A stretch of DNA of 64,000 nucleotides, taken from the NCBI RefSeq assembly GCF_964194155.1, contig NC_135881.1, positions 136,214,001 to 136,278,000 of the forward strand, written 5' to 3'. The notes beneath the pieces are model-generated. The model worked only from the letters and a program-made list of their open reading frames with translations, was not told where the DNA came from and did no database searches. The DNA comes from Cetorhinus maximus (lineage: Eukaryota). Shown here piece after piece: positions 1 through 55,479 of the stretch. Numbering within the stretch: the stretch's first letter is position 1; each line of letters starts with the position of its first letter. The position numbers and the translations under genes are program-made.

Positions 1-225
1 TTCTGATTCTGGCCAATTGGGTCTCTTGCCATCTCCTTATATTCCTACTCCAATATCATGCATCTCTAGAGCATCCTTAATATTAATAAGAAGTATAATC
101 AAATCCATCCCTTGTTCAACCATTGCAGGGGCATCATATTCCTTGGCCCTACTTTGAAACATATGGATGTGTTAAAGGATGGGTTCAATGTCTGCAAAAT
201 CGGGACAGTGGTTTAGATTTTTAAT
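1..225 (-). other. Putative exon (5'UTR plus possible start codon at 32-30, MARDPIGQNQ...) of an unidentified minus-strand gene running off the left edge
   Basis: Strong acceptor on the minus strand (gattttttttccctctttttcag, AG at 227-226). ATG in good Kozak context (gagATGG) with an in-frame TAG 15 nt upstream. Only 10 codons are visible, so the product cannot be identified. Confidence 0.5.
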
Positions 226-1639
226 CTGAAAAAGAGGGAAAAAAAATCAACTGTAAAGTAAAAATATTACATAATTTTTAATACGTAACTTCAAGTTTTC
301 CAGGAGAATGGGCTTCATGACCCACCACAAAATCCATCACTAATTTTGTACCTTCAAAACCTGGATTGTTCCATTCAGGTTTTCATGCCTTTTCTTCTCA
401 ATTTAATTTAAAACTACAGGTTTACCCAACATTCTAAGTTACAAAGCTCATGTAAGCTATTCGTTTTCACATCAATGGCCTGATTATTAGCCTTCCTTCA
501 GATGTTTTGAAACTTTTGCGAGTTTGACTTTGTATGTATGGGTTGTACAATATTACATTTATTTCACATATTTAATATTCTTAGAGCCTACAGGGTTTCT
601 AAGTGTGAAGTAACAGTTTGCAAAATTATACTGTATTCCAGAACTAAAATTGCACTTCATTCTATGAATAGCTGTACAATCACAGAACAACGTGACAGTG
701 ACTCAACTTTACTGGCAAGATCTCTTCAAACCTGAAGTCATTCTGATCCCTTTCCAAAACAATTTTTGAGTTCTGAAACGTTGTTTTAAAATATTGAGTT
801 TAACCATTCTATAGCTTACCTTCAAAGAAAGGGAGGCTGATTACAAGAAGCATGTATTACCGAAAAATTCCTACTACAGCAGCTCCATCAGCAGTTATAC
901 AAAGCAACACTTCCAAAGATCAGAAAATACTTATGAGGAAAGACACTTGGCCCATCTTAATTCATCCATCCAGAACAAACTTAAACTCCCCTGTTGCCTC
1001 CAAACTGTTCATAAATCCAGTTTAAGTGTCGTTCACTCTGCATGAAAAGTCTTCCAGTCCTACTGTTGTCTTTTACTATTTTAAACCCATGTCAAACTTG
1101 TCCAACACCTACAGTTAAATTTATAGTAATAATCCTGATTAATCTTTTGCATACCATTTACTACCTTATATACACTGATAAGGTCACCTCTTCAATCCCT
1201 TATTTCCAGGCTGAAAAACCTGAATCTGTCTGATCTTCGTAATTCAGACTATATATTAGAGGTCTTCTATTGAATGCCTCCTTTGTTTCTCAATAACCAG
1301 AACAGAAGACAGTACTGAACAATCGGTCTCAAAATATTGTTGAATTTGATCGTGACTACAACTGACATGTACTGTTTTGTCTACGTAGTTCAACATTCTC
1401 TTGTCTTTGTTGAGTTCCGCTCTGCATGAGTTGGATATGAGCCCTCTGCAGCTTTTGGAAATTACGAGTTTCCCATATACAAAATGTGCAGAAGTAATTT
1501 TGTATATTCAGCGATAAGACAATGATAGAAAAATTACTGTGGTCATTTAGCACATTGGATGCTCAGTTTTGGTTCAAATGGCACCACTTTTTGTGTGGTT
1601 CCATTCCTACCTGTCCCATTTGAGCCAATGCATCACCAT

Positions 1640-2010
1640 CAACAGTTTCTCCTTGCAGCAAAGTGATAGATAAGTTAGAATTTCCTCCAATTGATCACAA
1701 AGACAACTAAAGCCATTGTTTTCAGCTCCCACCAAAATCTCTTCTCCCTTGGCACTTCTGTCAACTCCACACCACCACAACTACTTGCCTAGGCTAAACT
1801 AGACTTTGCAAAAACTTGGCATCCTATTTGATCTACAGTTGATTTTCAGACCCTATTATCTTATTCATCACCAAACTCTATTATTTCCTCCTCTACAAAC
1901 CTCTAGTATCCCTAGACTCAATTTCTCCATGGTTCAATGTGGCCACCTTCCAATTTCTAGCCTCCACTTCTCCAACTTAAGTTGCACTAACTCCCAACCT
2001 CACTGATCTA
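1640..2010 (+). mobile_element. Degenerate L2 LINE fragment
   Basis: Resembles the L2 RT C-terminal region (KAIVF..., NLGILFD.QLIF.P), similar to other L2 pieces in the window. Confidence 0.5.
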
Positions 2011-2499
2011 CACTGACTTCCGAAAGGGAATTGTAACCTTCAATAACAGATGGGTTGGGGATGTGTGGGTAGTCAAAATTGATCTTTGGATTGTCACCAC
2101 CATCTGGTTCCAAAGTACCCACGTAATTGTTTAACAGAGGCACATTTGGATGCCTGTGAGTAACCTATTCGCTGAAGTTGGGGCATTAATTACTGCTGCA
2201 GGGCAATTATTGCAGCAATTAAAATCCTTGAGATGTTAATTAGACCTTTGTAAATTAAATTTCACTAAACTTTAAGTTCAACATCTCCAACTCTGGGTTT
2301 CCTTGAGGCTCATTAATCCCACTAGTAAAATGGAGATGAGTTTGAGCCACAGTTCTCCAGCGTGTTTAAAGTTGTGATTTCCCTTATGAATAAAAGCTCC
2401 ATACTTACAGCAGATGTCTTAGTACTCTCTGGCAAATTTGGAGGTTTCCAAGCAAACGAATTTAGAATGGGAGGCGCATCGGGTGTGTTTGACATCACG

Positions 2500-3520
2500 T
2501 CAGAAGAGGAAGAACACCACCATTCACAGTAGCAACAATACATTTTGGTGGAACGAGCAGGTGCACAGGTGGCAATATACACATAGCAAGCTGTACAGAC
2601 AAACAGCTTCCTTCACCTCTCAGAAGAGCAGTGCCTCTGCAGGTGGACATTGTCTCATCAAGCGGTCACAGGTATCTCAAGCGTCCAAGAAAACCTGCTA
2701 CCTGCTGGACATAGTGGTCATATATCACCAGTGGCTGTGAAATTCACTACTGTCTTCAATATTTGTCTCTGCATCCTTCAAACGTGCTACTGGAGACATT
2801 ATGGAGAGTTTTGCAGTCCAATCTACATAACTGCATTAGGCAGATGACTACTTGATTGTTTGCCAAGGCTGTAACTTTCCTGTGATAACAATAGCTAGAA
2901 TGAGTGGGTACTCAGTTCACCTCTCGGACTGGATTCCCACAGATACAGGGTATCATTAATTGCACACTTATGGTGATCCAAGCATCACCACAGCAGCCAG
3001 GAATTTTTAAAATCAACCACGAGAAATATTCTTCAATGTGCAGGTGTGTAACCAAAGGGAGAGGTCCATGCAGATGTGCATCAGATTTCCTGGAAGATGT
3101 CCTGATGTACTAATACTGTGGTGGTCCAACATTCCAGACCTTTTTGTTCCAAGAAGCAGACCCAAGGGCTGGCTCATAGGAGCCGGGGGATATCCCCTTC
3201 AAAAAGGTCTCTCAATACCAGTGAGAAACCAATGAGGCGCAAGATCACTACAATTAAAGCCACATGACCACCAAGCACATCATGGAGTAAATTATCAGAA
3301 TGGTGAAGTTCCACAAGTGCCTATTTAGGCTTGGAGTATTCACCAGTGAGGATATCCAGACCAACAGTGGTGCATGAAGTCCTGCACAACATTGGGCTAT
3401 AGATAGGATTGTAGGTGGAGGAGGATGAAGGCACTCATCAGGCATCTTCAGATGTGGATAACATTAAAAAGAAAGAGAAGGATTATGAAGATAAGGCAAC
3501 ATCCACATACACTGCTACCC
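2500..3520 (+). pseudogene. Harbinger (HARBI1-like DDE) transposase remnant
   Basis: Frameshifted pieces GFPQIQGIINCT, RFPGRCPDVLIL and GWLIGAGGYPL match the GFP..IGAIDCTH, .PGS.HD and WLLGD.GYPL motifs of Harbinger transposases. Confidence 0.8.
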
Positions 3521-6165: not shown

Positions 6166-9100
6166 TTTTTTAGTTCATTCATGGGATGTGGGCTTCGCTG
6201 ACTGGGCCAGCATTTATTGCCCATCCCTAATTGCCCATGAGAAGGTGGTGGTGAGCTATCTTCTTGAACCGCAACCGCTGCAGTCCAAGTGGTGTAGGTG
6301 CACCCACAGTGCTGTTAGGAAGGAAGGTCAAGTATTTTGACCCAGTGACAATTAGGAATGGCAATATATTTCCAAGTCAAGAGGTGAGTGACTTGGAGGA
6401 GAACTTCCAGGTGGTGGTGTTCCAATCGATCTGCTGCCCTTGACCTTCTAGATGGTAGTGGTTGTGGGTTTGGAAGATGCTGTCAAAAGACCCTTGGTGA
6501 ATTCCTGGAGTGCATCTTGTAGATGGTACACACTGCTGCTACTGTGCATCGGTGGTGGAGGGAGTGAATGTTTGTGGATGGGGTGCCAATCAAGGGGGCT
6601 GCTTTATCCTGGACGGTGTCAAGCTTCTTGAGTGTTGTTGCAGCTGCACTCATCCAGGCAAGTGGAGAGTATTCCATTACACTCCTGACTTGTGCCTTAT
6701 AGATAGTGGACAGGCTTTGGGGAGTCAGGAGGTGAGTTACTCACCGCAGGATTCCTAGTCTCCAACCTGCTCTGGTAGCCAGAGTGTTTACATGGCTAGT
6801 CCAGTTCAGTTTCTGGTCAATGGTAGCCCCCTAGGATGTTGATAGTGGGGTAAGAGTGATGCTGATGCTATTGAACATCAAGGACCGATGGTTAGATTCT
6901 CTCTTATTGGAGATGGTCATTGTCTGACACTTATGTGACATGAATGTTACTTGCCATTTGTCAGCCCAAGCCTGGATATTGTCCAGGTCTTGCTGCATTT
7001 GGACATGGACTGCTTCAATAACTGAAGAGTTGCAAATGGTGCTAAATATGGTGCAATCATCAAACATCTCCACTTCTGACCTCATGATGGAATATTGATG
7101 AAGCAGTTGAAGATGGTTGGGCCGAGGAACTCCTTCAGTGATGTCCTGGAACCGAGATGATTGACTTCCAAGAACCACAACCATCTTCCTTTGTCCTCAG
7201 TATGACTCCAACTAGCAGAGAGTTATCCCCTGATTCCCATTGACACCAGATTTCATAGGGCTCCTTGATGCCACACTCGGTCAAATGCTGCCTTGATGAC
7301 AAGGGCAATTACTCTCATCTCACCTTTGGAGTTCAGCTCTTTTGTCTATGTTTGAATTAAGACTGTAATGAGGTCAGGAGCTGAGTGACCCTAACAGAAC
7401 CCGAACTGAGCGTCAGTAAGCAGGATATTGCTAAGTAAGTGCTGCTTGATTTCACTGTTGATGACTCCTTCCACCACTTTACTGATGATCAAGAGTACAG
7501 TGATGCGGCGGTAATTGACTGGGTTGGATTTGCCCTGCTTTTTAACGTACAGGACATAGCTGGGAAATTTTCCACATTGTAAGGTAGGTGCCAGTATTTA
7601 ATCTGTACTGGAACAGCTTTGCCTAGGGGCATAGCAAGATCTGGAGCACGTCTTCAGTATCATTGCCAGAATATTATCAGGGCTCATAGCCTTTGCAGTA
7701 TCTCGTACCTTCAGCCATTTCTTGAAATCACATGGAGTGAATCAAACTGGCTGAAGACTGGCATCTGTGATGCTGGGGTGCTCCAGAGGAGGCCGAGATG
7801 GATCACCCACTCGGCACTTCTGGCTGAAGACTGTAGCAAAAGCTTCAGCCTTATCTTTTGTACTGATCTGCTGCGCTCTCCCATAATTGAGGGTGGTAAT
7901 ATTGTGGAGCCTCCTTTTCCAGTGAGTTGTTTAATTGTCCACCACCATTCATGGCTGGATGTGGCAGGACTGCATAGCTTAGATCTGATTATGGGATCAC
8001 TTAGCTCTGTGTATTACTTGCTGCTTACGCTCTTTGTCACGCAAGTAGTCCTGTGTTGTAGCTTCACCAGGTTGACTTCTCATTTTTAGGTATGCCTGGT
8101 GCTACTCCTGGCGTGCCTTCCTGCACTCTTCTTTGAATCAGGGTTGTTCCACTGGCCTAGTGGTAATGGTAAAGTGAGGGGATATGCCAGGCCATGAGGT
8201 TACAGATTGTGGTTGAGTACAATTCTGCTGCTGCTGATGATCCTCAGCACCTCATGGTTGCCCAGTCGAGTTGCTAGATCTGTTCAAAATCTATCTCATT
8301 TAGCACGGTGGTAATGCCACACAGCAGATAGAAGGTATCCTCAATGTGAAGACGGGACTTCATCCCAACACGGACTGTGCGGTGCTCACTCCTACCGATA
8401 CTATCGTGGACAGATGCATCTGTGGTAGGCAGGTTGGTGAGGATGATTTCAAGTATGTTTTTCCCTTTATTCCCTCACCACCTGCCGCAGATGCAGTCTA
8501 GCAGCTCTGCCCTTTAAGACTCCATCAGCACAGTCTGTGGTGCCACAGAGCCACTCTTGGTGATAGATAATGAAGTCCTCCACCTAGAGTACATTCTGCA
8601 CCCTTGCCATCCTCAGTGATTCCTCCAAGTGGCATTCAACATGGAGGAGCACTGATTCATCAGCAGAGAGGGGAGCCATACACGGTAATCAGCAGGAGGT
8701 TTCCTTGCCCATGTTTGACCTGATGCCATGAGGCTTCATGTGGTCCAGAGTCAATGTTGAGGTCTCCAAGGACAACTCGCTCCTGGCTATATACTCCTGT
8801 GCCTCCACCCCTGCTAGGTCTGCCCTACCAGTGGTGACAGGACATACCCAGGGATGGTGATGGTGGTGGCTGGGTATGCAAGGTACCTGTGAGCAATGAT
8901 TCTGCGAGCATGACTTTTGTCAGGCTGTTGCTTGACTAGTCTGTGAGACAGCTCTCCCAATTTTGGCACAGGCCCTCAGATGTTAGTAAGGAGGACTTTG
9001 CAAGGTTGACAGGGCTGAGTTTCCCATTGTCGTTTCCAGTGCCTTGGTCAATGCAGAGTGGTCCATCTGGTTTCATCCCTAATCCAATTTTCATTAGTGA

Positions 9101-9372
9101 TTTGATACAACCGAATGACTTGCTAGATCATTTCAGGGGGCATTTAAGAGTGAACAACATTGCTGTGGATCTGGAGTCACATCTAGGCCAGACCAGGTAA
9201 GGATGGTCGATTTCTTTCCCTCGTGAACCAGATGAGCTTTTACGAAAACGGTTTCATGGTCATCATTAGACTTTTAATTCCAGATTTTTATTGATTGAAT
9301 TAAAATTCTACCATCTGCTGTCGTGTGATGTGAACCCAGAGTCTCTGGATTACTAGTCCATTGCCTTCCCTG
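6166..9372 (-). mobile_element. Full-length decayed CR1-group LINE with tRNA-derived head and a single APE-RT ORF (no ORF1)
   Basis: RT C-terminal motif MEYSPLAWMSAA.TTLKKLDTVQDKAA and APE start near 9000. The 5' ~300 bp matches the SINE at 61164. 3' tail gggcaataaatgctggc...cccacatcccatgaatgaa(A)n. Confidence 0.85.
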
Positions 9373-14354: not shown

Positions 14355-16332
14355 GAATAAAAATCTGGAATTAAAAGTCTAATGATCTCAATGAAACCAT
14401 TGTTGATTGTTGTAAACCTATCTGGTTCATTCATGTCCTTTCGGGAAGGAAATCTGGCCTACATGTGACTCCAGACCAATGTGGTTGACTCTTAAATGCC
14501 CTAACAAGCCACTCACTTGCTACAAAATCTCAAAAAAGAAACAATGAAACCAGACGGACCACCCGGCATTGACCCAGGCACTGGAAACGACAACAACAAT
14601 ATCGACCCTGCGAAGTCCTTCTTACGAACATCTGGGTACCAGTGCCAAAATTGGGAGAGCTGTGTCACAGACTAGTCAAGCAACAGCCTGACATAGTCAT
14701 CCTCGCGGAATCATATCTTACAGATTATATCCCAGTCTTCAACCAATTCGATTCACTCCACGTGATATCAAGAAACGGCTGAAGCCACTGGATACTGCAA
14801 AAGCGATGGGCCCTGACAATATTCCGGTAATAGTACTGTAGACTTGTCCTCCAGAAGTTGCCATGCCTCTAGCCAAGCTGTTCTAGTACAGCTATAACAC
14901 TGGCATCTACTTGGCTATGTGGAAAATTGCCCAGGTAAGTCCTCTACACAAAAAGCAGGACAACTCCAACCTGGCCAATTACCACCCCATCGGTCTACTC
15001 TCTGTCATCAATGGAAGGGGTCATCAACAGTGCTATCAACCCAAACTTGCTTAGCAATAACCTGCTCACTGGGGCCCAGTTTCGGTTCCGCCGGGACCAC
15101 TTGGCTCCTGACCTCATTGCAGCCTTGGTTCAAACACGGACAAAAGAGCTGAACTCCTGAGATGAGGTGAAAGTGACTGCCCTTGACATCAAGGCCACAT
15201 TTGACAGAGTGTGGCATGAAGGAGTCCTAGCGAAACTGGAGTCAATGGGAATCAGGGGGAAATCTCTCACAGGTTAGAGTCATACCTAGCACAAAGGGAG
15301 ATTGTGGTTGTTGGAGGTCAGTCATCTCAGCTCCAGGACATCACTGCAGAGTTCCTCAGGGTAGTGTCCTCGGCCCCACCATCTTCAGCTGCTTCATCAA
15401 TGGCTTTCCTTCCATCATAAAGGTCAGAAGTGGGGATGATCACTGATGATTGCACAATGTTCAGCACCATTCGCGACTCCTCAGATACTGAAGCATTCCA
15501 TTTCCAAATGCAGGAAGACCTGGACAATATCCAGGCGTAGGCTGACAAGTAGCAAGTAACATTTGTGCCACACAAATGTCAGGCAATAACTATCTCCAAC
15601 TAGAGAGAATCTAACCATTGCCGCTCGACGTTCAATAGCATTACCATCACTGAATCCCCCACCATCAACATCCTGGGGGTTACCATTGACTTGAAACTGA
15701 ACTGGACTAGCCATATAAATACAGTGGCTACAAGAGCAGGTCAGAGGCTAGGAATCCTGTGATGAATAACTCACCATCTGACTCCCCAAAGCCTGTCCAC
15801 CATCTACAAAGCCCAAGTCAGGAGTGTGATGGGACACTCTCCACTTGCCTGGATGAGTGCAGCTCCCACATCACTCAAGAAGCTTGACACCGTCCAGCAC
15901 AAAGCAACCCGCTTGATTGGCACCCCATCCACAAACATTCACTCCCTACCCAACTGATGAACAGTGGCAGCAGTGTGTACCATCTACAAGATGCACTGGA
16001 GGAAATCACCAAGGCTTCTTAGACAGCACCTTCCAAACCCACAACCACTACCATCTAGAAGGACAAGGGCAGCAGATAGATGGGAACACCCCCTGGACGT
16101 TGCCCCCCAAGTCTCTCTACATCCTGACTTGGAAATATGTTGCTGTTCCTTCACTGTTGCTGAGTCAAAACCCTGGAACTCCCTAACAGCACTGTGTGTG
16201 TACCTACATCACATGGACTGCAACGGTTCAAGAAGGCAGCTCACCACCACCTTTCCAAGGGCAACTAGGGATGGGCAATAAATACTGGCCCAGCCAGCAA
16301 CACCCACATCCTGTGAATGAATTAAAAAAAAA
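14355..16332 (+). mobile_element. Internally deleted copy of the tRNA-headed CR1-group LINE
   Basis: SINE-like body, then APE N-terminus (LTNIW..VPKLGEL.HRLVKQQPDIVILAESYL), then a jump at ~14735 to the RT region. Same 3' tail and poly(A). Confidence 0.85.
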
Positions 16333-16679
16333 CCCTGGTTTAAGATAGCTTTCTTCAACTAATCAATTAGAATATACAATCATGTTTGAGTTATTGGCAG
16401 TTGGATAGGACAGTCACATGAAACACAAACCACTTTGTATGTTTTAAGTATATGCTTTCTCTGCAGAACTGAACAAGCAACTGAGAAGCTAAGAGAGGTC
16501 CTTCCTGCTCTTCTCTCCACACAACTTGCAAGCTGTGGTGCCTGCCTGCTATTCTTGATTCTCTCTCCATGTGCAGCAGACAGAGCTTGTAAAGAAAGAA
16601 CTTAACTCCATAGTGTCCCAGCTGAATCTTTATATTCTTTTGAGTATACCAAAAAAATTAACTTGCTAATTTGTTAATT

Positions 16680-17259: not shown

Positions 17260-18090
17260 CACTTGCTAGGCCATTTCAGAGAGGAGTTAAAAGTCAACCA
17301 CATGGCTGTGGGCCTGGAGTCACTTATAGGTCAGACTAGGTACATCCTGCCCTGCCTTCCTGTATGTGTCAGAGACATGGCCAACGAACAGTAGACACCT
17401 TAAATTCCTGGAGAAATTATCACCAGCGATGTCTCCGCAAAATCCTGCAAATTCAATGGCAGGATAGGCGCTCCAATATCATATCCTCTCTCAGGCCAAC
17501 ATCCCCAGTATCGAGGCACTGGTTATTGTTAATCAGCTACGTTGGGCAGGCCACATCGTCTGCATGCCTGACACAAGACTCCCAAAATAAGCTCTCTAAT
17601 CCGAAATTCATCACATCAAGGGGTTATCAGAAGGGCAGAGGAAACATTTCAGGGACGTTGTCAAAGTCTCCCTGAAAAAAAGCAACATCCCCACCGATTT
17701 GTGAGAATCTCTTGCTCGAGACCACCCAAACAAGGTGCCAACCATTTTGAACATCTCCAATAGACCCAGGTGGAGGCCAAGCGCAAACAGTGGAAGGAGC
17801 GTACCAAACTCCAAGCATCTCACCCATCCACCTCATCAAACACTACCTGTCAAACCTGTGGCAGAGTGTGCAGATCCAGCATTGGACTTTTTCGTCGCTT
17901 CAGGACCCACAACCCTGATGTGGACAAAAGTCATCCTCGGTCCCAAGGGACTACCTAAGAAGAAGAAGAGACCACGTAAGGATAGCAGATTTCCTTCCCT
18001 AAAGGACATTAGTGAACCAGGTGGGTTTTTAATGACAATCGATGAAAGTTATCATGGTCACCATTATTGAGACCAGCTTTAAATTCCATA
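17260..18090 (-). mobile_element. Head/body fragment of the tRNA-headed LINE/SINE family, split by an RTE insertion
   Basis: Body sequence stops at 17342 and resumes at 17969. Confidence 0.7.
17343..17968 (+). mobile_element. 5'-truncated RTE-clade LINE
   Basis: HQRCLRKILQIQWQDR and QLRWAGHIVCMPDTRLPK motifs, C-terminal C..CGRVC.S.IGL...RTH, (AAG)n tail, TSD agactaggta/agaccacgta. Confidence 0.85.
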
Positions 18091-18094
18091 TTAG

Positions 18095-18600
18095 TATTCC
18101 TAACTCACATCAAATGCCATTCACCTATTATCCCTATGCTTGCTGATCTATACTGGCTCCTGGTTAAACAGTGCTTCGATTTTAAAATTTTCATGCTTGT
18201 TTTTAAATGGCCTAATGTTACACAGATCCAAGCCAGTTGGTGAAGTCAAAACTAAGACAAGCAAGTCTTTCCTTGCAGAGAGAGAGAGAGAGAGAGTTTA
18301 TTGACTTAGTACAGAATCAATCATTTTCCACCCCCCAGTGTCCCAGCTATCCCCATTTATCGGTGTACAAATACCCATCACTTGTTTAACAACGTAATTG
18401 CAATTAAACCTTAACAATGTAATTGCTAATAATATTGACACCTGGCCATTCCTTATCTCTGTAATTGCCTTCAGCCCTACAACTATTGAAGAATTCTGTG
18501 CTCCTCTGAATCCCACATCTTAAGCGTCCCTAATGTAATCAGTCCAGTGGTCAATTCTTCAACTTTCTAGGCCCAGTGCACTGGAATTCCCTCCCTTCTT
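18095..18600 (+). mobile_element. L2 3' fragments with an intervening (GA)n repeat
   Basis: PMLADLYWLLVKQCFDFKIFMLVFK is the L2 C-terminal motif. Confidence 0.65.
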
Positions 18601-19919: not shown

Positions 19920-22900
19920 TACAGGAATATAAGAACAGGAGAAGGCCATTTTGCCTCTTGCACCTGCCCCATCGTTCAATAAGATCATGGTTGATTGTTA
20001 TCCTAACACCATTTACCTACCTTCACTCCATATCCCTTAATATCTTCAGATGTAAAAAAAACTATTGATCTCTGATTTATAATTATTTTATCAGCTAGTA
20101 TTTACTGGTTTTTGTGAGAGAGATAGCCACACTTCTAACATCCTTTCCATGAAGAAGCTTTTCCTAATGTGTCTCTTGAATGGCCTGGCCTTGAATTTAA
20201 GGTTATGTCTCCTTGTCGTAGCTTTAATTTTAGCTAACAGTCTCTCAAATCCTTATTGAATGTCTTTTGGAAGTCCATATATACTACATCCCTAGACATT
20301 TGACTGTCTATTACTTTAATTACTTTCCTAAAAAATGAATTAAGTTCTTTAGACATGGCCTACCCTTATACCAATCAATGTTAGCTTTTTCTAATCAGCT
20401 TAAATTTGTTACTCTGTCCTTAATTATAGGTTTGAATACAGTAACTTCCCTGCTGGATGGCTGGAGTCACACCAAGCACAAAGGAAAATGATTGTTGGAG
20501 GTCAATCAACTCGGCCAGGCAATCACGGCAGAAGTTCCTCAGGGCAGTGTCCTAGGCCTAAGCATCTCCAACTGCTTCATCAATGACCTTACCTCTATCA
20601 TACAGTCAAAAGTGCAGGTATTCGCTGATGAGTCCACAGTACTTAGCTGCATTTGCAAATCCCCAGATAATGAAGTAGCCTGTGCACGTATGCAGCAAAA
20701 CTTGAACAAAACCTTCAGACTTGGGCTGATAAGTGGCAAGTACCATTCACATCACACAAATGCCAGGCTCACTTTTCTTAAATACTGGAGTTACATTTGT
20801 AAATTTCTAATATAAAGGAACAATTTCTGAACCAGAAGAGCTTTCAGAAATTATGGCTAAAGCATCTGCAGTTTCCTCATTTACTTTTTTTAAAGCTTCG
20901 GAGTGGAAACCATCAGATTCTGGGATTTCTCAGTCTTAGTGCCGTTATGTTTTTTAATACTGTTTCCTTGCTTATGTTAATTTTAATGAGTTCCAGTCCT
21001 TGATTTATTATTAATGGTTTCATTGGAATGTCAGGTATATTATCCTCTTCCTCTACTGTAAAAACTGATATAGTGTAGTTATTCATAAAGTTTGCCATTT
21101 CCTTATTTTCATTTGCAGTACTACCCCCTCTGTATTAAAGGGCTCCTTTTATCCTTGATTACTCTTTTTTTAATGTAAATGTAAAAGCTTTTTGTGTTAA
21201 TCTTGATATCCCTTGCAAGTTTCTTTTTATATTCCAAAGTCTTCCTTTGCAAGTTCAGGGGGGCAACTTAGGGAAGCTTGACTTGTAGGGAAAAGGTGGA
21301 TGTAATAGATGCAACTGAATGGATTTTTGCAATCTTAATGACAAAGATATCCATCAGCTCCTTGCACTTATGGTTGTAGGTAATGGTGCAGTGGGCTGCA
21401 GAGAAGACTTTCAGCAGATGATTGCCAGTGGAAAAAATCCAGGAATTATCCTTTGCATTTCAGAATGATTCTGAAATCATGAGTTGTTTTGGCAGAGGTG
21501 AGCAGAGCCCAGTAGTAGTTGATGTAATCCAGTCGGTTCTGGAGATGAATGATTAAATGTGCATCATATAGGTTCAAATCTGCACTACCAGTTCTTTACT
21601 GGAGACCAAGACATCAAGGACAGAGGTGAGCATGTGATTGAGTCATTTGCTAGCTGTAGAAGTATTGTGGTAAACAGAGGCTAAATGCTAGACTATTGAG
21701 AGTTTGTAAGTACCATTGTAAATTACTTGGGAGAGAGTGATTTTCAGGGGTGGAAGGAGAATATGAGTGGCGAGGGATGCCATAGAAGTGATTAGAGATG
21801 ATCTTGTCTGTGACTGAGTTGCTAGGAACGGAGAAATGACAAGGTTGAGGGAGTAGTCATGAAAATAGGTTGGAGTTTATATGGAGGGTAAGGTTAAGGG
21901 AGGACAAGAGGGCAAGGAGATTTGAGATAGAGGTTGAAATTGCCAAAGAAACCAAAAAAATAATAGCTATCAGCGTGGATTTCAAAAGGATTTCATGCTT
22001 GATCAACTGTATTGAATTATTTGAAGAAGTCACAGAGAGAGTAGACAAGGGTGATACAGTACATGTAATGTATTTGGATTTTCAAAAGGCCTTTGATAGG
22101 TACCACAGAGTGAACTCAAAATTAAGGTCAGAGCATATGGAGCCAAGGGTCATGTGAGCAGCACAGACAGCAAGCTGGCTACAAAATAGAAAACAGGGAA
22201 TAGGGTTTAAGGACAGCTACTCAGACTGGTAGGAGGGAAGTGGTGTTCCACTGGCATTGGTGTTGTAACCACTGTTGCTCACAATTTAATGATTCGGACT
22301 CAGGATTCAGAAGTACAATTTCAAAACGTATGGATAACAGCAAATTGTGAAGTTTAGTTAATACAAGTGAGGAACGTGACAAAATAAAATATGACATTAA
22401 GCTTGCAGAATGGCAAATAACTTTGAAAATAGGTAAGTGTGATGGTGTATTTGGAAGGAAGAATAAGGAGGTCACATACTTCTTGAATGATGAGAGTCTG
22501 GATGGGGTAGAGGAGCAAAGGGATCATGGGACACATAAAAAAAACACTAAAAGCAGTGACACCAATAAGACCATCAAAAACTAAACCAAGGTTCGTTCAT
22601 TCCTGGAGGGATATAACTGAAAAGCAGAGAAGTATGTTAAACTTGTATCAAACTTTGGTTCCCCACACTTGGAATTGGCATTGGGGATGGTGCAAAAAAA
22701 AAGATTCACAAGGATGATACCAGAACAGAGAGGAAAGATTGAAGAGCTTGTTGCTGTTTTCTCTGGAAAAAGAGAAGGCTGAGGGATGATCTGATTGAAG
22801 TCTTTAAAAAAGAAAAGGTTTGATGGGCTAAATGTGAAGAAAATGTTTCCATTTGTGGGGAATCCAAAACTAAAGAGTGTAACTAATAAATCCAATAGGG

Positions 22901-24429: not shown

Positions 24430-26930
24430 TGCTACTTGGCAGGTAAAATAAAGGACAATTCTAAGTTATTTTACAAGTACATTAAGAGTAAGGAGACAAC
24501 TAGGGAAAGAGTAGGGCCCATTAAGGACCATAGTGGTAATTTGTGTGTGGAGCTGGAAGATGTAGGTAGGGTTCTAAATGAATACTTTGTGTCGGTGTTC
24601 ACAAGTGAGAGGGACGACGTGGATATGGACATCAGGCAGAAAGACTGTGATATAGTTAAAGAAATTAGCATAGAAAGGGAGGAGGTTCTAAGTAGTCTGC
24701 TTACAAGTAGATAAATCTCCAGGCCCGGATGAAATGTATCCCAGGCTGTTGAGTGAGGCAAGGGAGGAGATAGCAGGGGTGCTGGAAATAATTTTCAATA
24801 CCTCTCTGGCCACAGGAAAGGTGTCAGAGGATTGGAGGACAACCAATGTGGTACTGTTATTCAAGAAGGGAAGAGGGGATGAACCAGGGAACTGCGGACC
24901 AGTCAGTCTAACCTCAGTGGTGGGGAAACTATTGGAAGCAATTCTGATGGACAGAATTAATCTACACTTGGAGAGGCAGGGATTAATCAAGGACAGTCAG
25001 CATGGTTTTGTTAAGGGGACCAATTTGATTGAATTTTTTGAAGAGGTGACCAGGTGTGTAGATGAGGGTAATGCATTTGATGTAGTCTACTTGGACTTCA
25101 GCAAGGCTTTTGTTAAGGTCCCGCATGGGAGACTGATAACGAAAGAATCCATGGCAATTTGGCAAATTGGATCCAGAATTGGCTGAGTGGCAGAAAGCAG
25201 AGGGTGATGGTCAAGGGGTGTTTTTGAGACTGGATGCCTGTGTCCAGTGGGGTTCCACAGGGATCGGTGTTGGGTCCCTTGCTGTTTGAGGTATATATAA
25301 ATGATTTAGACTTGAATGTAGGAGGGTTGATCAGTAAGTTCGCAGATGACATGAAAATTGGTGGGGTGGTTTAATAGTAAGGAGGATAGCCATAGATTAC
25401 AGGAGGATATAGACGGGCTGGTCAGATGGGCTGATCAGTGGCAAATGGAATTTAATCCGGATAAGTGTGAAGTGATGCACTTGGGCAAGACAAACAAGGC
25501 ATGGGAATACACAATGAATGGTGGGGCCTTGGGAAGTACCGAGGATCAGAGGGGCCTTGGTGTGTATGTCCACCTTAAGGTAGCAGGACAGGTAGACAAG
25601 GTGATTAAGATGGCATATGGGATACTTGCTTTTATTAGCTGAGGCATAGAATATAAGAGCAGGGAGGTTATGCTGGAACTGCATAACACGCTGGTTAGGC
25701 TACAACTAGAGTATTGCGTGCAGTTCTGGAACCCCCATTATAGGAAGGATGTGATTACACTGGTGAGAGTGCAGAAGAGATTTACCAGGATGTTGTCTGG
25801 GCTGGAGAGTTTTAGTTATGAGAAGAGTTGGATAAACTGGGGTTAGTCCAGAATTCTCTTAAGGTTAACTTGCAGGTTGAGTCGGTAGTTAGGAAGGCAA
25901 ATGCAATGTTGGCATTTATTTCGCGAGGACTAGAATATAAAAGCAGGGATGTGCTGCTGAGGCTTTATAAGGCTCTGGTCAGACCACATTTAGAATATTG
26001 TGAGCAATTTTGGGCCCCATATCTGAGGAAGGATGTGCTGGCCCTGGAAAGGGTTCAGAGGAGGTTCACGAGGATGATCCCAGGAATGAAAGGCTTAACA
26101 TATGAGGAACGTTTCAGGACTCTGGGTCTATACTCGATGGAGTTTAGAAGGATGAGGGGGTGTCTGATTGAAACTTACAGAATACTGAAAGGCCTGGATA
26201 GAGTGGACGTGGGGAAGATGTTTCCATTAGTGGGAGAGACTAGGACCCGAGGGCACAGCCTCAGAGTAAAGGGAAGACCTTTTAGAACAGAGATGAGGAG
26301 AAACTTCTTTAGCCAGAGAGTGGTGAATCTATGGAATTCATTGCCACAGAAGGCTGTGGAAGCCTGGTCATTGAGCGTATTTAAGTCCGAGATAGATAGG
26401 TTCTTGATTGGTAAGGGGATCAAAGATTACGGGGAGAAGGCGGGAGAATGGGTTTGAGAAACTTATCAGCCATGATTGAATGGCGGAGCAGGCTCGATGG
26501 GCCGAATGGCCTAACTTATGGTTATTTTCCCTAGAGCATAGGAGATTGAGGGGGGACATGATTGAAGTGTATAAAATTATGAGGGGCATAGATTGGGTAG
26601 ACAGGAAGGAACTTTTCCCGGTGGTGGAGGGATCAATAAGCAGGGGGCATAGAGCTAAGGTAAGGGGCAGAAGGTTTAGAGGGGATGTGAGGAAGAATTT
26701 TTTCACCCAGAGGGTGGTGGGAATCTGGAACTCACTGCCTGAAAGGGTGGTAGAGGCAGAAACCTTCATAGCATTTAAGAAGTATTTGGATGTGCACTTG
26801 CGATGCCATGGCATATAAGGCTATGGGCCTAGTGCTGGAAAATGAGATTAGAATAGTTAGGTACTTGTTTGACTGGCAGAGACTCAATGAGTGGAAGGGC
26901 CTTTTTCTGTGCTGTGGACCTTTATGACTC
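24430..26930 (+). mobile_element. 5'-truncated CR1 LINE (HER1-like tail)
   Basis: RT motifs (RPVSLTSVVGK-like, YLDFSKAF, PQGSVLGP, KFADD, FNPDKCEVMH) and a CR1 3' tail. Confidence 0.92.
25846..26519 (+). mobile_element. Young CR1 3' fragment nested inside the previous CR1
   Basis: Uninterrupted ~200-codon ORF2 C-terminus. GGTTA duplicated at 25841-25845 and 26520-26524, and the host sequence resumes after it. Confidence 0.9.
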
Positions 26931-32050: not shown

Positions 32051-33786
32051 TCCAACTGCAACCTGGGCTAACGTCCTTGTTAGGAGGCAGAAGGGGACTG
32101 GTTTCAGGCTTAAGCAGGCTCATATCAAACTGCAAGATTCATGCTGGCCACAGCTTGCTTCAGGGCTCAGGTGTTGGAAGCCCTTTAAACACACCACCAA
32201 CAGCTCCTCCTTTGTCAGGTGATGACGTGGCCACCGCCTCTGGATGCAGTGTTACTAGCGGCCCTGTCTTCCAGCCAATAATTGGCCAGCTGACACGAGA
32301 ATGCTGTGTAAACAGACGTCGGAGCAGAAGGGATTTGCCACCTGCTTCGGTTCTGCCTCTGACCCTGCCAGTTCAGGTAAAATTCTGGTAACAGTGTCAC
32401 TTAACACACAGGGATTTCATCAGTAAAAGCCGCATTATTTAAATGCATGTGTTCAGCAAACATGCCGGATGCTGGTCTCCCTGTGACTCCTTCCTTGTCT
32501 TGTACAATTATTATTAAAGCTCTTTCCTATTGATTTTTTCTTTGCCAAATCTCTCCTCTCATGTCTCAAAGATGCTGATATTTTTGACTGTTCAAATTGC
32601 AATTTACAAAAAAAGCTTTTCTATATCAACAAGTAAAAATTAGGTTTTGGCCCTTCCATTCAAAGACCTGCACCAGGATTTGATTAACTGACGATACATC
32701 ACAATAAATATTTCCTATGTTTCTTTTATTACCAAATTCTCCCATCTGCTTCCTCCTTGAATATGTTACTGGAGACTAGTTTCAGGGACAATAGTTTTAC
32801 CAGGTGATGACAATAACTGCCAGATCAATCATCTTAATATTGGGGCTCCCAGTTGGTAATTTTGGCTGTGGGTGGAAAGGAATAACTGAAGGTTGATTCC
32901 CATTATTACAAGTCTTCGCATATAATCGACATTTCATTCGAGCAAAATACTCCTTTCTTCCCTTCCCATTAGCACTATTCTCTTTCTCCATTCTTTAAAA
33001 TAGTATAATAACGTAATTGATAATAACATAAATGACATAATTCTGAGCCTCTTGGATGATAGTGGAAATACCTCCAATTTTAATCAGTATTATGAGGATA
33101 AAAATAAACAAATGAATTAAAGTACTTGCATCTTATGTAAATACTGAAAGTCTGTTGTGAGGTGAAGCAAAAAAAAATCATAAATTGAAACAAGTTGCAA
33201 GGAAAGTTGCTTGAATCTTTAGTAAGGTTTGTGAAGGAGTAAGTAAACAGTATTTGTATTTGAGGCTCTTTCAATATATAAAAAAGACTTGTGTTTATAT
33301 TTTTATTCATTCATGGAATCACTGGCTAGGCCAACACTTATTGTCCATCCCTAATTGCCGCTGAGAAGGTGGTGGTGAGCAGCCTTCTTGAACTGCTGCA
33401 GTCCGTGAGGCATTGTACACTCAAAGTGCTGTTAGGACGAGAGTGCCAGGATTTTGACCCAGTGAAGGAATGGTGATATAGTTCTAAGTTAGGATGGTGA
33501 GTGACTAGGAGGGGAACTTGCAGGTAGTGTTGTTCCATACATCTGTCCTTGTCCTTCTAGATGGTAAAGGTCATGGGTTTGGAAGGTGCTGTTGAAGGAG
33601 TCTTCGTGAGTTGCTGCAGTGCATCTTGTAGATGGTATGCACTGCTGCCTCTGTGCATCAGTGATGGAGGGAGTGAACCTTTAAGGTGGTGGGTGGGTAC
33701 CATTCAAGCGGGTTGCTTTGTCCTGATGGTGTTGAGCTTCTTAAGTGTTGTTGGAGCTACATTCAACCAGTCAAGTGGAGTGTATT

Positions 33787-33944: not shown

Positions 33945-36900
33945 CATCATTATTAGGGGCTTTAGAGGCTGTTGATTCAACCACTATGGACTTTGTAGTT
34001 TATATTGAAAAACTGTTCCATTTACTCATTGCGAATGAGATTGAAGAGTAAAAGCAGGCCTCAATGTTTCTTACAGTCATCGGAATGAACATTTTCACTT
34101 TTTACTGCGAGATCTCATTGCTTCTGATATGCCAGTAGATAAAAGCTTTAAAGAGCTTGTGGACGTTTTGAAAAAGCACTTCGATCCCAGACCAGCAATT
34201 AATGCCGAGAGATTCAAGTTTCACCGAAGAGAACAGTATGACAGTGTGTCAGTTTCCCAGTTCCTGGCTGAGTTGAGAAAATTAGCCGAACATTGTGATT
34301 TTAGCGGTTACCTGGAAGAAGCATTGTGTGATCGCTTGGTTTGTGGACTAAGAAATGAAAGAATTGTTAGCGGAGCAAGAGTTGACATTTAAGAAAGCGT
34401 TCAAGATTGTGCGAAGCATAGAAATGGCAAAGAAACAAGCTGGAGATTTGAAACTGGATTCTAACAATGCCAAAGTTAAAATATTAAAATCAGGGTATAC
34501 TCGCTTTCAAACATGTTACCGCTGTAATGGAATAGGGCATAATGCAAAAGCCTTCAAGTGGAAAACCGCTGATTGTTGCTACTTTGGGGAACAAAAGGAC
34601 ACATACAGCATGCATGTAGATCAAAGGCTGATCACAGTAAAGCGGTACCACCAATAAAAGGGCATCACGAAGAGCACATAGACAAGTCGTGTTTGAAAAT
34701 AAACAGGCAGTTTAAAACGACGCACTACTTGGAAACAAAATACAAAAGTAATGCGAGTCCAGACAAGACAGAAAATGAAACTAACAGCGACAATGGGGAA
34801 GAGTAATTGTTTGCATTCAGTCTGATTTGCAACTAGAAGGAGGACTAAAATTTGGCATTGCCTCAAATGGTAAAATAGCTGAAATGGAGGTTGACGCTGG
34901 AGCGTCTGTTTCTGTTGCTTCAGAGAAGACACTGGAGAAAACTTTCAAGAAATGCCCATTGGAGAAAACCCCCCTCCAGCTTAGCACCTACACTGGTAAG
35001 CCTGAGAACATACTTGGAAAAATGTCCGTTCAAGTTAAATATGGAGATCAAATAGCAAGGTTGCCACTTATCATTGTGAAAGGGGATCGTCCATCGCTTA
35101 TGGGCAAGAACTGGCAAAAAGAAATTTGGCTGGACTGGAGTAAAATAAATAAAGTGCATTGCAACCCCATGTTACAGTCCTTGTTAGACAAGCATACTGA
35201 TGTCTCCAAAGAAGGTCTTGGAGTTATTAAAGACATTGATGTCAAACTTGCAGTGAAGACCGAAGCTTCTCCAAGGTTCTTGAAACTACGTTCAGTTCCC
35301 TACTCAATGTGACAAAAAATCGAGCAGGAACCAGAACGACTTGAAAACTTTCAGATAATTGAGAAAGTTGATTATGCAGAGTGGGCAGCTCCAATAGTCC
35401 CAGTAGTGAAGGATGACGTGTCTATCAGAATGTGTGGTGACTATAAAATCACCATTAATGCTTTCCTGAAAGTGCGTCAGTACCCGCTACTGAAAATTGA
35501 GGACCTGTTCGCTGCTCTGAATGGAGGTGAATTATTCACAAAACTTGACCTATCACAGGCATTTTTGCAAATGCAGCTGAGTGAAAATTCCAGGAAGTAT
35601 ACAACCATCAGCACATACACTTAGGTCTATGTCAATACAAACAGCTACCATTTGGAATCACGTCATCACCAGCCTTATTCCAGCAGGCCATGGACAAAAT
35701 ACTGCAGGGCCTCCCTGGTGTAATCTGCTTCCAAGACAACATGCTTATCACCTCTAACTGGAGTGATTGCCCATGGAGACAGAATGGTGCAGAGCTTGAG
35801 GGAAGGGAGACATGTACATAGGAGGTGGCACCATAGCTGCACTGTATCCTTGGGTTCCTATGGGGTGAGGCAGCATCAGAGCACTGGGAGACATGTGATG
35901 CGGGCTCCCTTCATGGATTTGTACATCAACCCCCCAACTCATTTAGAGAACTTAGGCAGGGCCCTGCGTACACATTGAAAAATGCGGCATCCGCTGTAAG
36001 AAATTCAAATGCTTGTTCCTGAAGCCCTCAGTGGAGTCCCTGGCATATGTGATTGATGAAACCGGCCTCTCAACCTCACCCAGAAAGGTGGAGACAGTGG
36101 TGAATGCACCACAGCCCAAAAATGTTAAGGAGCTTCGTTCATTTTCGGGACTTGTAAATTATCACGGCAAGTTCATTTCCGGTTTGGCTACCAAGGCAGC
36201 ATCACTGAATAATCTGCTGAAGAAGAATGCAAAATGGGATTGGTCACAAGCCTGTCAGGAAAGTTTCAAGGAACTCGAGCAAGGGCTCACTTCTGCTAAA
36301 GTCCTGGCACATTTAAATGAAAAGTTACCTGTCAGCCTGACTTGTGATGCATCTGGTTATGGTGTTGGAGCTGTCATCGCCCACACATTTCCTGATGGCA
36401 GTGAAGAGCCCATTGCATACACCTCACACACATTGTCCAAGGCAGAACAAACTTACACCCAAATTGACAATGAAGCTCTCGGACTAATCTATGGAGTCAA
36501 GAAGTTCCACCAATATTTGTATGGGCGTTAATTCACGTTAATTATAGACCACAAGCCTTTGACTTGGTTTCTTAGCCCAAAGTCACAAACCCCGACACTT
36601 GCTACTGCACGCCTACAAAGGTGGGCACTGATCCTGTACAAAATTACATTTCACTCTACTGAGGATCATGGAAATGCGGACGCTCTTTCCAGTCTTCCGT
36701 TACACCACAGCTCCAAAACCCAAAGTGAAGTCACTGTTTTCACTGTGAACCAGATGTTACCTGTTAAAGCGGATCAAATTCGACTTGAAATGCAGAGGGA
36801 TGCTGTGCTCTCCAAAGTTTACATATACACACAAGATTGGTATGTACCTCAAGAAGTGACTACTGAGCTTAAATCTTACTACATGCATAGATTTGATCTG

Positions 36901-37672
36901 ACTCTGAAAGACGGTTGTTTGTTATGGGGAATCAGAGTTGCTACCCCTCCAAAGTTCCAAACAAGTGTCCGAAGAACTTCACCTCAGTCACATGTGAATC
37001 ATCAAAATGAAAGCTTCAGCTCATCTACATGTATGGTGGCCACACCTGGATAAAGACATCGAAGGCATGGTCAGTGATTGCCTTCCATGCCAAAAAATGA
37101 AGTATTTTTCTACATCTGCCCCATTACATTCTTGGGCTTGTCCTGACCACCCATGGCAGAGACTTCATGTGGACTTTGCCGGACCATTTCTTGGACATAC
37201 ATTCCTGATTGTGATGGATGCCTACACAAAGTGGCCTCATTTTATTCCCATGAAGTCGATTACTTCAGCAAAGACTGTTGATGCTCTCTGGAATGTGTTC
37301 ACTACTTTTGGTTTGCAGGAGCAGGTTGTGTCTGACAATGGCACACAGTTCACATCATATGAATTTCAAACATTGCTGAAAAACAATGGGATCAAGCAGA
37401 TTCTCATCTCGCCTTACGCCTATCCTCAAATGGTGAAGCAGAGCACTTTGTCCAGATATTCAAAATGGCCATATTGAAGGGGAGGACGCAAACAGATTGG
37501 AAGTTGAAGCTGAAGAACTTTTTGATGATGTATTGTAACACTCCACATTCAACAACAGACATATCTCCTGCTAAGCTGATGTTTAGAAGACAGCTGCATT
37601 CCAGAATGGATTTGCTGTGTTTGGATTTGAAAGGAAAGATTGGGTCAAGGCAACTTGATCAAAATAGGTCCC

Positions 37673-37731
37673 AGGAACCTTCGTTTTTCATACAAGAAGT
37701 TGGAGTTCAGAAGCAGTGACAAAACATCTCA
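37673..37731 (+). repeat. Truncated, internally deleted Gypsy 3' LTR
   Basis: aggaaccttcgtttttcatacaagaagttggagttcagaagcag-tgacaaaacatctca matches the 5' LTR with a ~33 bp gap. Confidence 0.85.
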
Positions 37732-38204
37732 GTATTCCATCACACTCCTGATTTGTGCCTTGAAGATGGTGGACAGACTTTGGGGAGTCAGGAGGTGAGT
37801 CACTCACGGTAGAATTTCCAACCTCTCTTCTGCTCTTGTAGCCACAATATTTATATGGCTGGTTCAGTTCAGTTTTTGGTCAATGCTAACCCCTAGGATG
37901 TTGATAGTGGGAGATTCAGCATGATGGTAATGCCATTGAATGTCAAGGGAAGATTGCTAGATTCTTTTGGAGATGATCATTACCTGGCACTTGCACGGTG
38001 CAAATTTTACTTGCCACTTATCTGTCCAAGCCTTAATGTTGTCCAGGTCTTGCTGCATGTAGACATGGACTGCTTCAGTATCTGAGGAGTTGTGAATGGT
38101 GCTGAACATTGTGCAATCATCAGCAAACGTTCCCACTTCTGACCTTATGATTAGGGAAGGTCATTGATGAAGCAGCTGAAGATGGTTGGGCCTAGGACAC
38201 TACC

Positions 38205-38381
38205 CAATTTTAACCCAACTCACCAGGTGGAAACCCATGACAACAGGTGAAACAGTAATTTTACACCCTGCACACTGTTACTGATTGTCTTCAATGGACA
38301 ATAAGATCTACAGAGTATAAAACCAACATGGTTTGAGTACAATCAGTTTCCCAATTGACAGGATAGGTTAAAATTGCTCCC
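38205..38381. mobile_element. Short palindromic MITE
   Basis: Inverted termini caattttaacc...ggttaaaattg. Confidence 0.55.
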
Positions 38382-38689: not shown

Positions 38690-39530
38690 TCTGAGGTGTT
38701 CAGCTCCATTCACAATTCCTCAGATAATGGAGCAGTGTATACCCATATACAGCTAGACCTGAATAGCATCCAGGCTTGGGCATTAAGTGGCAAGTAACAT
38801 CTGTGTTACATCAAGTGCCAAGCAATAACTGTGTCCAGAAAAATAAAGTTGAACCAACTACCCTTGATATTCAATGGCATTACCATTGTCAAATCCCCCA
38901 CCATCAACATCCTGAGGATCACCATGGACCAGAAATTCAACCAGACCAGCAATATAAATCTTTTGATTACTAGAGCAGGTTGAAGGCTGGGTGGTTCACT
39001 ACCTGATTTCCCAAAGCCTCTCCATCACCCACAAGGCACAGGTCAGGAGTGTGATGGAATACTCTCCATTTGACTGGATAATTGCAGCTCCATCAACACC
39101 ATCAAGGACAAAGCAGTCTTACTTGATTGCCATCCATCCATCACATAAACATCTACTCCCATCACTACCACTGGCATTTGGTGGGTGCAGTGTATACCAT
39201 CCATAAGATGCACTGCCACAACTTGCCAAAGCTTTTTAACTGTATATTCCATACCCATGACTTCCACTATGTAGGTTAAAAGCAGCAGGTGCGTGGAAAT
39301 ACCATGATCTCCAAGATGCCCTTTAAGCCTCACACCATCTTGACAGACATATATTGCTGTTGTTTCATCATTGTTAAGTTAAAATCGAACAATCCCCTAC
39401 CTTAAAGCACAGAGTAGTGGACTGCAATGGTTTAAGAACACTCATCACGACCTTCTCATGGCCAACTATAAATTGACATTAATGCCTGCCTTCATTGCAA
39501 GGCACATATCCTGAGAATGAATTTTTAAAA
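38690..39530 (+). mobile_element. Old 3' fragment of the tRNA-headed LINE family
   Basis: HKAQVRSVMEYSPFDW motif and a degenerate tail. Confidence 0.8.
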
Positions 39531-39534
39531 AAAG

Positions 39535-44794: not shown

Positions 44795-45058
44795 GTTTTA
44801 AAGATTTGTCTGTACAATTTCATACTAAGTGCTCTTCTAATTTATTTTGGCTTTTACAGCTGTAGCAAACCTCGTTTCATGTAGGAAAGAAAAAAGTAGG
44901 TGGTATATATAATCTGTGGATGTTTTAAAAGATTTGCCCGTACAATTTCATACTAAATGCTCTTCTAATCTATTTTGGCTTTTACAGCTGTAGCAAACCT
45001 CGTTTCATGTAGGAAAGGAAAAAGTAGGAAGTATATATAATCTGTGGACGTTTTAAAA
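44795..45058. repeat. Tandem duplication of a ~128-bp unit
   Basis: Units start at 44795 and 44922 with a few substitutions; a third start at 45050. Confidence 0.95.
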
Positions 45059-46545: not shown

Positions 46546-46959
46546 CTAATTTGCAAAGATAGCCCAGGATTAATTTAGCAGAAAGGAACATTCAAAGGCA
46601 TATATAATAAAGTGTAGGAAGTTTATATGTTAAAAATATTGTAATACTAGGGAGATAGAAATGGAATTAAAACTAAACAAAATTTAAATGTGAAGTATTT
46701 TACATAATAAAAAACGTTAGGCATCCACATTCATAAGCTTTACTTGTTGGAAGATCTTGCTCTTTAGGCAGGTATTTATCAAGTTATTTAAAAATTATTC
46801 TGGTTGGGTAAATGTGTATGTGTGTGTGCAGGCAGACACTAAGTGATCCTGATGTGCTTGCTGGATTCTTAAACTATTGACACCAAGTTTGTGGATCTGG
46901 GAAGCTCTTTTGTAATGTAATAATGAGTGCGTGGTGCAATAAGGGCCCCATTAATGGCA

Positions 46960-47088
46960 CTTACACCACATGTACTGCAGCAGTTCAAGAAGTTAGCTCA
47001 CTACCGCTTTCTCAGGGGCAATTAGGGATGGGCAATAAATGCTGGCCTGGCCAACGACACCCACATCCCATGAGTGAATAAAATAAAA
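46960..47088 (+). mobile_element. 3' tail of the tRNA-headed LINE/SINE family in an FKBP14 intron
   Basis: gggcaattagggatgggcaataaatgctggcc...cccacatcccatgagtgaataaaa. Confidence 0.8.
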
Positions 47089-55300: not shown

Positions 55301-55479
55301 AAATTTGAGTGTGTAGGGCATTATTAAACATCCTTAACATGTTAAATTGCATACATGGAATGTAAACCATTATGGGATTTTCCATTAAAAAATATCCATT
55401 GTCTTACAATTTCCTATTATACCTTTAGCAGATGCTGTACAGTCACACTTTCCTGGTCACCCAACATGCACTATTTTAG

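Follow-up and report, generated by a model that had tools for sequence, protein, structure and literature searches.

A Zenon LINE of Cetorhinus maximus with a tRNA-like 5' head and no T-runs in its coding strand: a candidate for transcription by RNA polymerase III

In the textbook division, coding long interspersed elements (LINEs) are made by RNA polymerase II (Pol II) and non-coding short interspersed elements (SINEs) by RNA polymerase III (Pol III). We describe here a LINE family that begins like a SINE, found through a copy at 6166–9370 of a 64,000-nucleotide stretch of the Cetorhinus maximus genome (contig NC_135881.1, positions 136,214,001 to 136,278,000), which is the window referred to throughout. 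Judged by identity with the first 400 nt of the published consensuses, the element is a member of the elasmobranch Zenon of Stuart et al. 2026 (PMC13343379). Its tRNA-like head, which carries A and B boxes, and the lack of T-runs in its coding strand make it likely that the active ancestor was transcribed end to end by Pol III, and we consider it probable that this same RNA was translated without an in-frame AUG.

Zenon has been found in five elasmobranchs, in all of them without the first open reading frame (ORF1) and with a poly(A) tail, and none of these elements had previously been deposited in a repeat database (PMC13343379; this and the other papers are cited for the parts of them that were consulted). 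The consensuses CarCar_Zenon-1, RhiTyp_Zenon-1, ScyCan_Zenon-1, SquAca_Zenon-1 to -3 and HypSab_Zenon-1 are of the same family as the window element and do not differ from it in sequence type, having an apurinic/apyrimidinic endonuclease (APE) and a reverse transcriptase (RT), poly(A) and no ORF1. CR1-Zenon has also been named in the whale shark (bioRxiv 10.1101/443036). The lepidopteran CR1-Zenon is of similar length (about 3.3 kb), has poly(A), and repeatedly yields internal-deletion derivatives made of its 5' and 3' parts, which end within the last ORF codons; its 5' end, as retained in one of these derivatives, SIDE Persaeus, is described as lacking both a Pol III promoter and any homology to tRNA (PMC6740152).

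Other described systems resemble the element in one respect each. A possible precedent is RTE-1_DAn with its relatives, LINEs of the RTE clade with a tRNA-like sequence matching many SINE2 elements; it is known from its description alone, one sentence that mentions it as a match to remove and holds no analysis of position, promoter or terminator (Kojima 2018, PMC5786205). R2, RTE, Ingi and L1Tc are functional analogues, being single-frame LINEs with uncapped RNA and 5' ribozymes like that of hepatitis delta virus (HDV) (PMC5786205), but their RNAs are cut from Pol I or Pol II transcripts, whereas the 5' end of the Zenon element is a Pol III-type promoter. The SINEs HE1 (V-SINE), SacSINE1 (Deu) and SINE2-1_CM (CORE) likewise join tRNA-derived heads to LINE tails but have only the 3' tail in common with HER1 or L2-2_CM (PMC3747384, PMC5499810), and would by these descriptions differ from the SINEs considered here. 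Identity with CR1-2_CM/SINE2-1_CM was considered and dropped, as that SINE is a chimaera-restricted CORE-SINE with an L2 tail (PMC5499810). The openly readable literature surveyed, with Repbase and Dfam outside the survey, yielded no Pol III-transcribed coding LINE in the parts consulted. In PMC13343379 the words 'tRNA', 'promoter' and 'polymerase' occur 0 times in the main text, and 'tRNA' 0 times in the supplement; the head sits unremarked in its consensuses, and neither it nor the T-run avoidance, the missing AUG or the derived SINEs is described there.

The host genome (3.99 Gb) was searched as DNA with the junction between body and endonuclease, which gave 10,435 candidates, of which 40 were scored. 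At 30 loci picked in this way, the common sequence sets in abruptly at a G-rich start, followed by the A and B boxes. A majority sequence of 3,290 nt was built from the window copy and the 21 of 39 extended loci picked as near full-length; remapping of all 100 sequences altered 17 of its positions and opened its frame to 934 codons. The majority consists of a tRNA-Thr(AGT)-like head with A and B boxes, a body of about 330 nt, one APE-RT frame and poly(A), and Pfam recognizes endonuclease and RT in natural copies (PF03372, PF14529, PF00078). CarCar_Zenon-1 has 3,288 nt and its first 400 nt read as near-identical; a 16-nt motif of the majority is present in five rows of the PMC13343379 supplement. 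Copies with long matches are about 85–96% identical to the majority. In the window, 9337–6166 aligns with majority 73–3288 at 86.7% identity, and the parts of the copy are as follows.

6166–9370, minus strand: the elasmobranch Zenon LINE copy as a whole, dead, with 86.7% identity to the family majority
9316–9370 (end coordinate approximate), minus strand: tRNA-Thr(AGT)-like head, with the A box interrupted by a deletion and a degenerate B box at 9337–9327
9000–9315, minus strand: 5' body or leader; majority 1–291 and 1–314 are common to two SINE families
9074–9076, minus strand: out-of-frame AUG (majority 347) of a 35-codon frame that runs into the endonuclease start
6227–8999, minus strand: single APE endonuclease and RT frame, broken in this copy
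6166–6226, minus strand: short 3' UTR with AATAAA at 6218–6213 and an A-rich tail, the portion common with the SINEs

An earlier description of this copy, a sequence-only reading, had taken it for a LINE in which SINE-homologous 5' sequence is followed directly by an APE-RT frame, and such an element is indeed present, 73.7% identical in its 5' part to the SINE at 61164. Its first base is 9370, not 9372 as then proposed. The copy is dead, with 23 indels in its frame, 20 of them not a multiple of three. The A box is interrupted by a deletion and the B box degenerate, just as had been described. Likewise there is no space for ORF1, since the 5' end is just 371 nt away from the endonuclease frame, which begins at 8999. 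That the lack of ORF1 marks a family holds genome-wide, but it is ordinary for the Zenon clade, because every Zenon element surveyed in PMC13343379 lacks ORF1.

As the first set had been picked with the junction itself, an independent set of 60 loci was picked by RT protein alone (ranks 2–61 of 109 scored matches). Sixteen of the 60 begin at majority 1–3, three stop within the leader, and 41 stop within the frame or run off the locus. All 19 copies extending past the endonuclease start enter the same leader. No upstream sequence is common to any two of the 60, and none has an alternative UTR or ORF1 5' of the head; a variable junction and a conventional UTR with ORF1 farther 5', the findings that the sequence-only reading had listed as contrary to it, are thus both unseen in this set. 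At one locus (L142) a full-length copy has inserted into a second copy of the family, the two being oppositely oriented; the nested copy was left uncounted among the 60.

Could the head be a SINE that inserted, by chance or recurrently, beside 5'-truncated LINE copies? Both repeats are very abundant and no target-site duplication surrounds the unit, but the explanation is refuted by the fixed junction of the RT-picked copies, the head lacks the SINE's own tail, and the same junction can be read in the published Zenon consensuses of five species. We give it next to no credence. A chance juxtaposition had been dismissed before, and it is the copies across the genome that exclude it; target-site duplications do not, as 2 of 26 head-to-tail pairs reach a score met by 2.9% of mismatched pairs. 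The duplications predicted to flank head-to-tail units were therefore not found above chance, and the result is neither for nor against the unit. The copy at 14355, which had been cited as independent, does share the body-endonuclease junction but lacks the head and part of the frame (below).

In the majority both boxes, assigned by the A and B box consensus, are intact, at 10–20 (A) and at about 73–83 (B), with type-2 spacing near the 5' end. Copies begin 5–6 nt ahead of the tRNA-like stem, and the boxes lie where SINEs have them. With a relaxed threshold (-ps80), ARAGORN calls a tRNA-Thr(AGT) at 6–94 of the majority. All seven elasmobranch Zenon consensuses open with the head, the B box of the ray being degenerate, and two hagfish and one coelacanth Zenon entries have no head and contain runs of four or more T (T4+) in their first 400 nt (PMC13343379 Table S2; first 400 nt of each, by eye). 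Because the hagfish, coelacanth and lepidopteran Zenons are without the head, the parsimonious reading is that Zenon captured it and that it is not ancestral; the capture likely happened once, before the split of sharks and rays.

Four or more T terminate Pol III transcription. The majority has 0 T4+ runs in 3,290 nt against 15 A4+ runs, so that the scan for TTTT suggested earlier speaks strongly for Pol III; in mononucleotide shuffles the probability of 0 T4+ is 0.007. In the majority of a control CR1 (29 copies, same genome) we counted 17 T4+ runs in 3,085 nt, and real copies of the two families, with 0.30 (Zenon) and 5.59 (CR1) T4+ per kb, are 18-fold apart. At third positions that may be T or C, outside CpG, the base is T at 1 of the 35 sites at which a run of three or more would result, against 108 of the 368 remaining sites (p=0.0002), a test that speaks for TTT and not for TTTT, as only two third positions could form a run of four. 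The control CR1 shows no such bias (37/68 vs 105/204, p=0.78), and the corresponding test for A-run avoidance in the Zenon element is null (p=0.67). Interrupted runs differ between sense and antisense strands in the same direction: TTTNT 0 vs 26, TNTTT 0 vs 23 and TTNTT 2 vs 22. None of 52 related ORFs longer than 1,500 nt, taken from 80 metagenome loci and only 23–46% identical and T-richer, reaches p<0.01 in the codon test.

Of the 80 metagenome relatives, many of which lack a 5' end and whose Zenon status is not established, 79 contain T4+ where they match, and in none do an A-box and a B-box pattern occur together upstream. The sole relative without T4+ in the matched region, L310, is missing its 5' end; about two would be expected. 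At the 3' end, T4+ immediately precedes the A's, no more than 18 nt from the anchor, in 26 of 129 family tails (e.g. L184, L249, L170), and the offset is the same in 20 of them. These may be the remnant of a terminator or decay of the A tail.

The T-runs might be avoided for other reasons, such as splice acceptors, U-rich decay signals or export, and the head might be a relic beside a Pol II promoter in the body. LINE 5' UTRs usually have Pol II promoters (for Zenon this is an assumption in PMC6740152), the 3' end has AATAAA and poly(A), and the body reads as more conserved than the head between sharks and ray. The A and B boxes are nonetheless retained in all seven published consensuses (apart from the degenerate B box of the ray), copies begin where a Pol III start would be expected, and T-run avoidance is found in no other LINE tested, neither the control CR1 nor the 52 relatives. 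We regard a Pol II promoter in the body as unlikely. RNAalifold on the body of eight copies gives 25 pairs, none with changes on both sides; this is uninformative because copies of one master cannot display covariation.

The refined majority has one open frame of 934 codons, whose first Met, residue 250, comes only after the endonuclease. Upstream, the frame is last closed by a stop at 298–300, and 41 open codons, Arg-rich toward their end, then lead to the endonuclease with no in-frame AUG. Eleven upstream AUGs are present, none leading into the frame; the out-of-frame AUG at 347 can be read in six of the seven published elasmobranch consensuses. Arg-rich or basic N-terminal extensions are found in two of the nearest full-length relatives, both of which start with Met. 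In the published 400-nt starts, as read, the endonuclease frame is slightly favoured upstream, Arg codons being kept via synonymous changes, and the changes are too few to decide. A TTG at majority 313 is not in frame in all species. Translation of R2 is non-AUG. For the Zenon element we favour entry into the endonuclease frame at a non-AUG codon, cap-independently, with a -1 shift from AUG 347 as the alternative.

The start problem of an uncapped RNA would be removed if labour were split: Pol III would make the RNA that is copied, while capped RNAs produced by Pol II reading through other copies would supply the protein in trans. Both T-run avoidance and the fixed 5' end would still be accounted for. 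The family is abundant (7,884 of the 64,000 window bases, 12%) and is found along its whole length in RNA-library contigs, and the SINE derivatives demonstrate mobilisation in trans. A capped RNA too, however, would have no in-frame AUG before the endonuclease, and upkeep of a 934-codon frame would be easier under cis preference, so we hold this division of labour to be improbable. The contigs come from four runs, two of them only presumed RNA, and span the whole element; start, strand and polymerase are not shown by them, and they are not used here as support.

A further possibility is a non-autonomous SINE of giant size, in which a Pol III head sits on the body of a dead LINE and another LINE does the copying. 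The element has a Pol III head and no start codon, and no intact copy was seen; but the 934-codon frame of the refined majority, with its endonuclease and RT motifs, is open, as a non-coding passenger would not keep it, and protein fragments from the whale shark and Heptranchias are 75–78% identical. This is very improbable. Those fragments (whale shark 75%, Heptranchias 78%) are the closest proteins found. The next closest are single-frame proteins of up to 42% identity, mostly unnamed, one of them from Branchiostoma; a word-index protein search gave an unnamed best match of 35%, and a search of PDB gave L1 and R2 proteins only. Classification of the element as a SINE2 was also rejected: its 5' end is SINE-like, but at 3.3 kb with a 934-codon frame it is neither short nor non-coding.

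The element is not a canonical CR1 either, a group marked by high RT identity to vertebrate CR1, an esterase ORF1 and no poly(A). The canonical vertebrate CR1 at 55478–58563 of the window is likewise of the CR1 group with APE and RT, but has 26.8% protein identity to the Zenon element and, in its majority, the T4+ runs that Zenon is without. Vertebrate CR1s encode, or descend from elements encoding, an esterase ORF1 (PMC13343379), which the Zenon element lacks.

How, then, might the active ancestor have worked? TFIIIC would bind the boxes, and Pol III, meeting no internal terminator, would read through 3.3 kb and stop only on meeting a T-run, at the 3' end or beyond it. The uncapped RNA would be translated cap-independently, most likely by entry at a non-AUG codon in the open stretch of 41 codons or else by the -1 shift from the conserved out-of-frame AUG, which is the weakest step. 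The APE-RT protein would then copy the RNA from its 3' end by target-primed reverse transcription, as established for the LINE class, leaving many 5'-truncated copies. On balance we lean slightly towards the full proposal suggested by the sequences, that of an autonomous coding LINE transcribed by Pol III only, with uncapped AUG-less translation, a tRNA promoter older than the shark-ray split, terminators purged and complete SINEs arising by single deletions.

Several points weigh against transcription by Pol III and translation of its product. The tRNA call requires the relaxed threshold on the majority, and ARAGORN with default settings finds no tRNA in the window. Rfam, run on one decayed copy (L060), gives neither tRNA nor ribozyme nor internal ribosome entry site at E<=10; the negative for an HDV-like ribozyme is limited to this Rfam search, no dedicated pattern search having been made. 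The sense strand is T-poor (20%), and in a synonymous-codon shuffle of the frame alone, a null that retains the element's own T-poor codons, P(0)=0.064 is not significant; to this are added the limits of the codon test and of the comparison set given above. An uncapped RNA of 3.3 kb that has eleven AUGs upstream, none of them leading into the frame, poses a difficulty for translation. Finally, no intact copy was seen, the best RT matches among the 109 scored having stops or frameshifts, and as a result the family may be extinct in this genome.

The window also contains a SINE with the same head.

61165–61482, plus strand: type A SINE, majority 1–291 joined to the 3' tail, with clear A and B boxes

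Window 9132–9345 matches 61427–61211 of this SINE at 73.7% (E=4e-31). The sequence-only reading had noted the homologous 5' part, which stands; the SINE at 61164 aligns with the window copy at both ends, however, and carries the LINE tail too. At 30 loci found with the window SINE, the 5' part (typically 1–291) is present in 30/30, and 28/30 have a BLAST match to the LINE tail from about 3216, so that a type A SINE is majority 1–291 plus 3216–3290. A second SINE junction, which joins 314 to 3215, is matched exactly 2,917 times and its reversed control 0 times. The type A head is the head of this genome's LINE; the type B head is longer and reads like the published Squalus Zenon entries. In type B (L220–L234) the tail is mostly AACAAA, against AATAAA in the LINE and type A.

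That these heads track versions of the LINE is consistent with SINEs arising from it repeatedly by deletion, like Persaeus. Deletions fusing the leader to the last 75 nt would have given at least two SINE families that ride the same enzyme; the structure of these SINEs is seen directly, and their history is the conditional part. Unlike Persaeus, which is without either tRNA homology or a Pol III promoter (PMC6740152), the shark derivatives are complete tRNA-type SINEs, since the LINE they come from has the head. Capture of a Pol III-type promoter, as claimed earlier, agrees with the tRNA-derived head with A and B boxes, present at the level of the family, but the local SINEs resemble derivatives formed by deletion within the LINE more than they do simple donors. 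In the first event a SINE may have donated its head to Zenon, or Zenon may have taken a tRNA gene.

If Pol III made the ancestor, a successful vertebrate LINE crosses the divide between Pol II LINEs and Pol III SINEs, with a 3.3-kb coding RNA from Pol III that would be translated by some cap- and AUG-independent route. SINEs could then originate in one step, by deletion from a LINE already bearing the head, and a source would be given for a SINE body otherwise without known origin. A compact, self-contained Pol III retrotransposon could also serve as a tool.

The remaining Zenon pieces of the window are these.

14356–16334, plus strand: second copy, 5'-truncated at majority 114, without tRNA head; majority 548–1669 deleted
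17262–17342, minus strand: body fragment, majority 224–304
17969–18098, minus strand: body fragment, majority 114–233
20458–20768, plus strand: RT fragment, majority 2221–2537
33300–33786, minus strand: 5'-truncated fragment, majority 2786–3287
37731–38205, minus strand: RT fragment, majority 2313–2791
38697–39533, plus strand: strongly decayed 3' fragment, 70% identical, matched best in the genome by ordinary Zenon copies
46959–47087, plus strand: 3' end fragment, majority 3162–3290

A sister family with a different 5' end was considered for the 70% fragment at 38697 and dropped, as the fragment led back to the ordinary copies.

Other repeats are also present in the window. Young canonical CR1 copies, 92–94% identical to their own majority, are at 55478–58563 (minus strand) and 24436–26930 (plus strand), and these belong to the control family. 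A second, more distant CR1 family is found at 41732–44228 (minus strand) and 53736–54884, in pieces 77% alike. Broken pol remnants of a long terminal repeat (LTR) retroelement occupy 34785–37477 (plus strand), with frames that read as protease-, RNase H- and integrase-like. At 44796–45058 a unit of about 129 nt is repeated in tandem, its two copies being 93% identical. Two old repeat pairs, each of about 70% identity, were also seen: one at 50481–50856 and 59449–59810, the other at 58934–59232 (plus strand) and 60289–60595 (minus strand), which looks like a SINE or an L2 tail.

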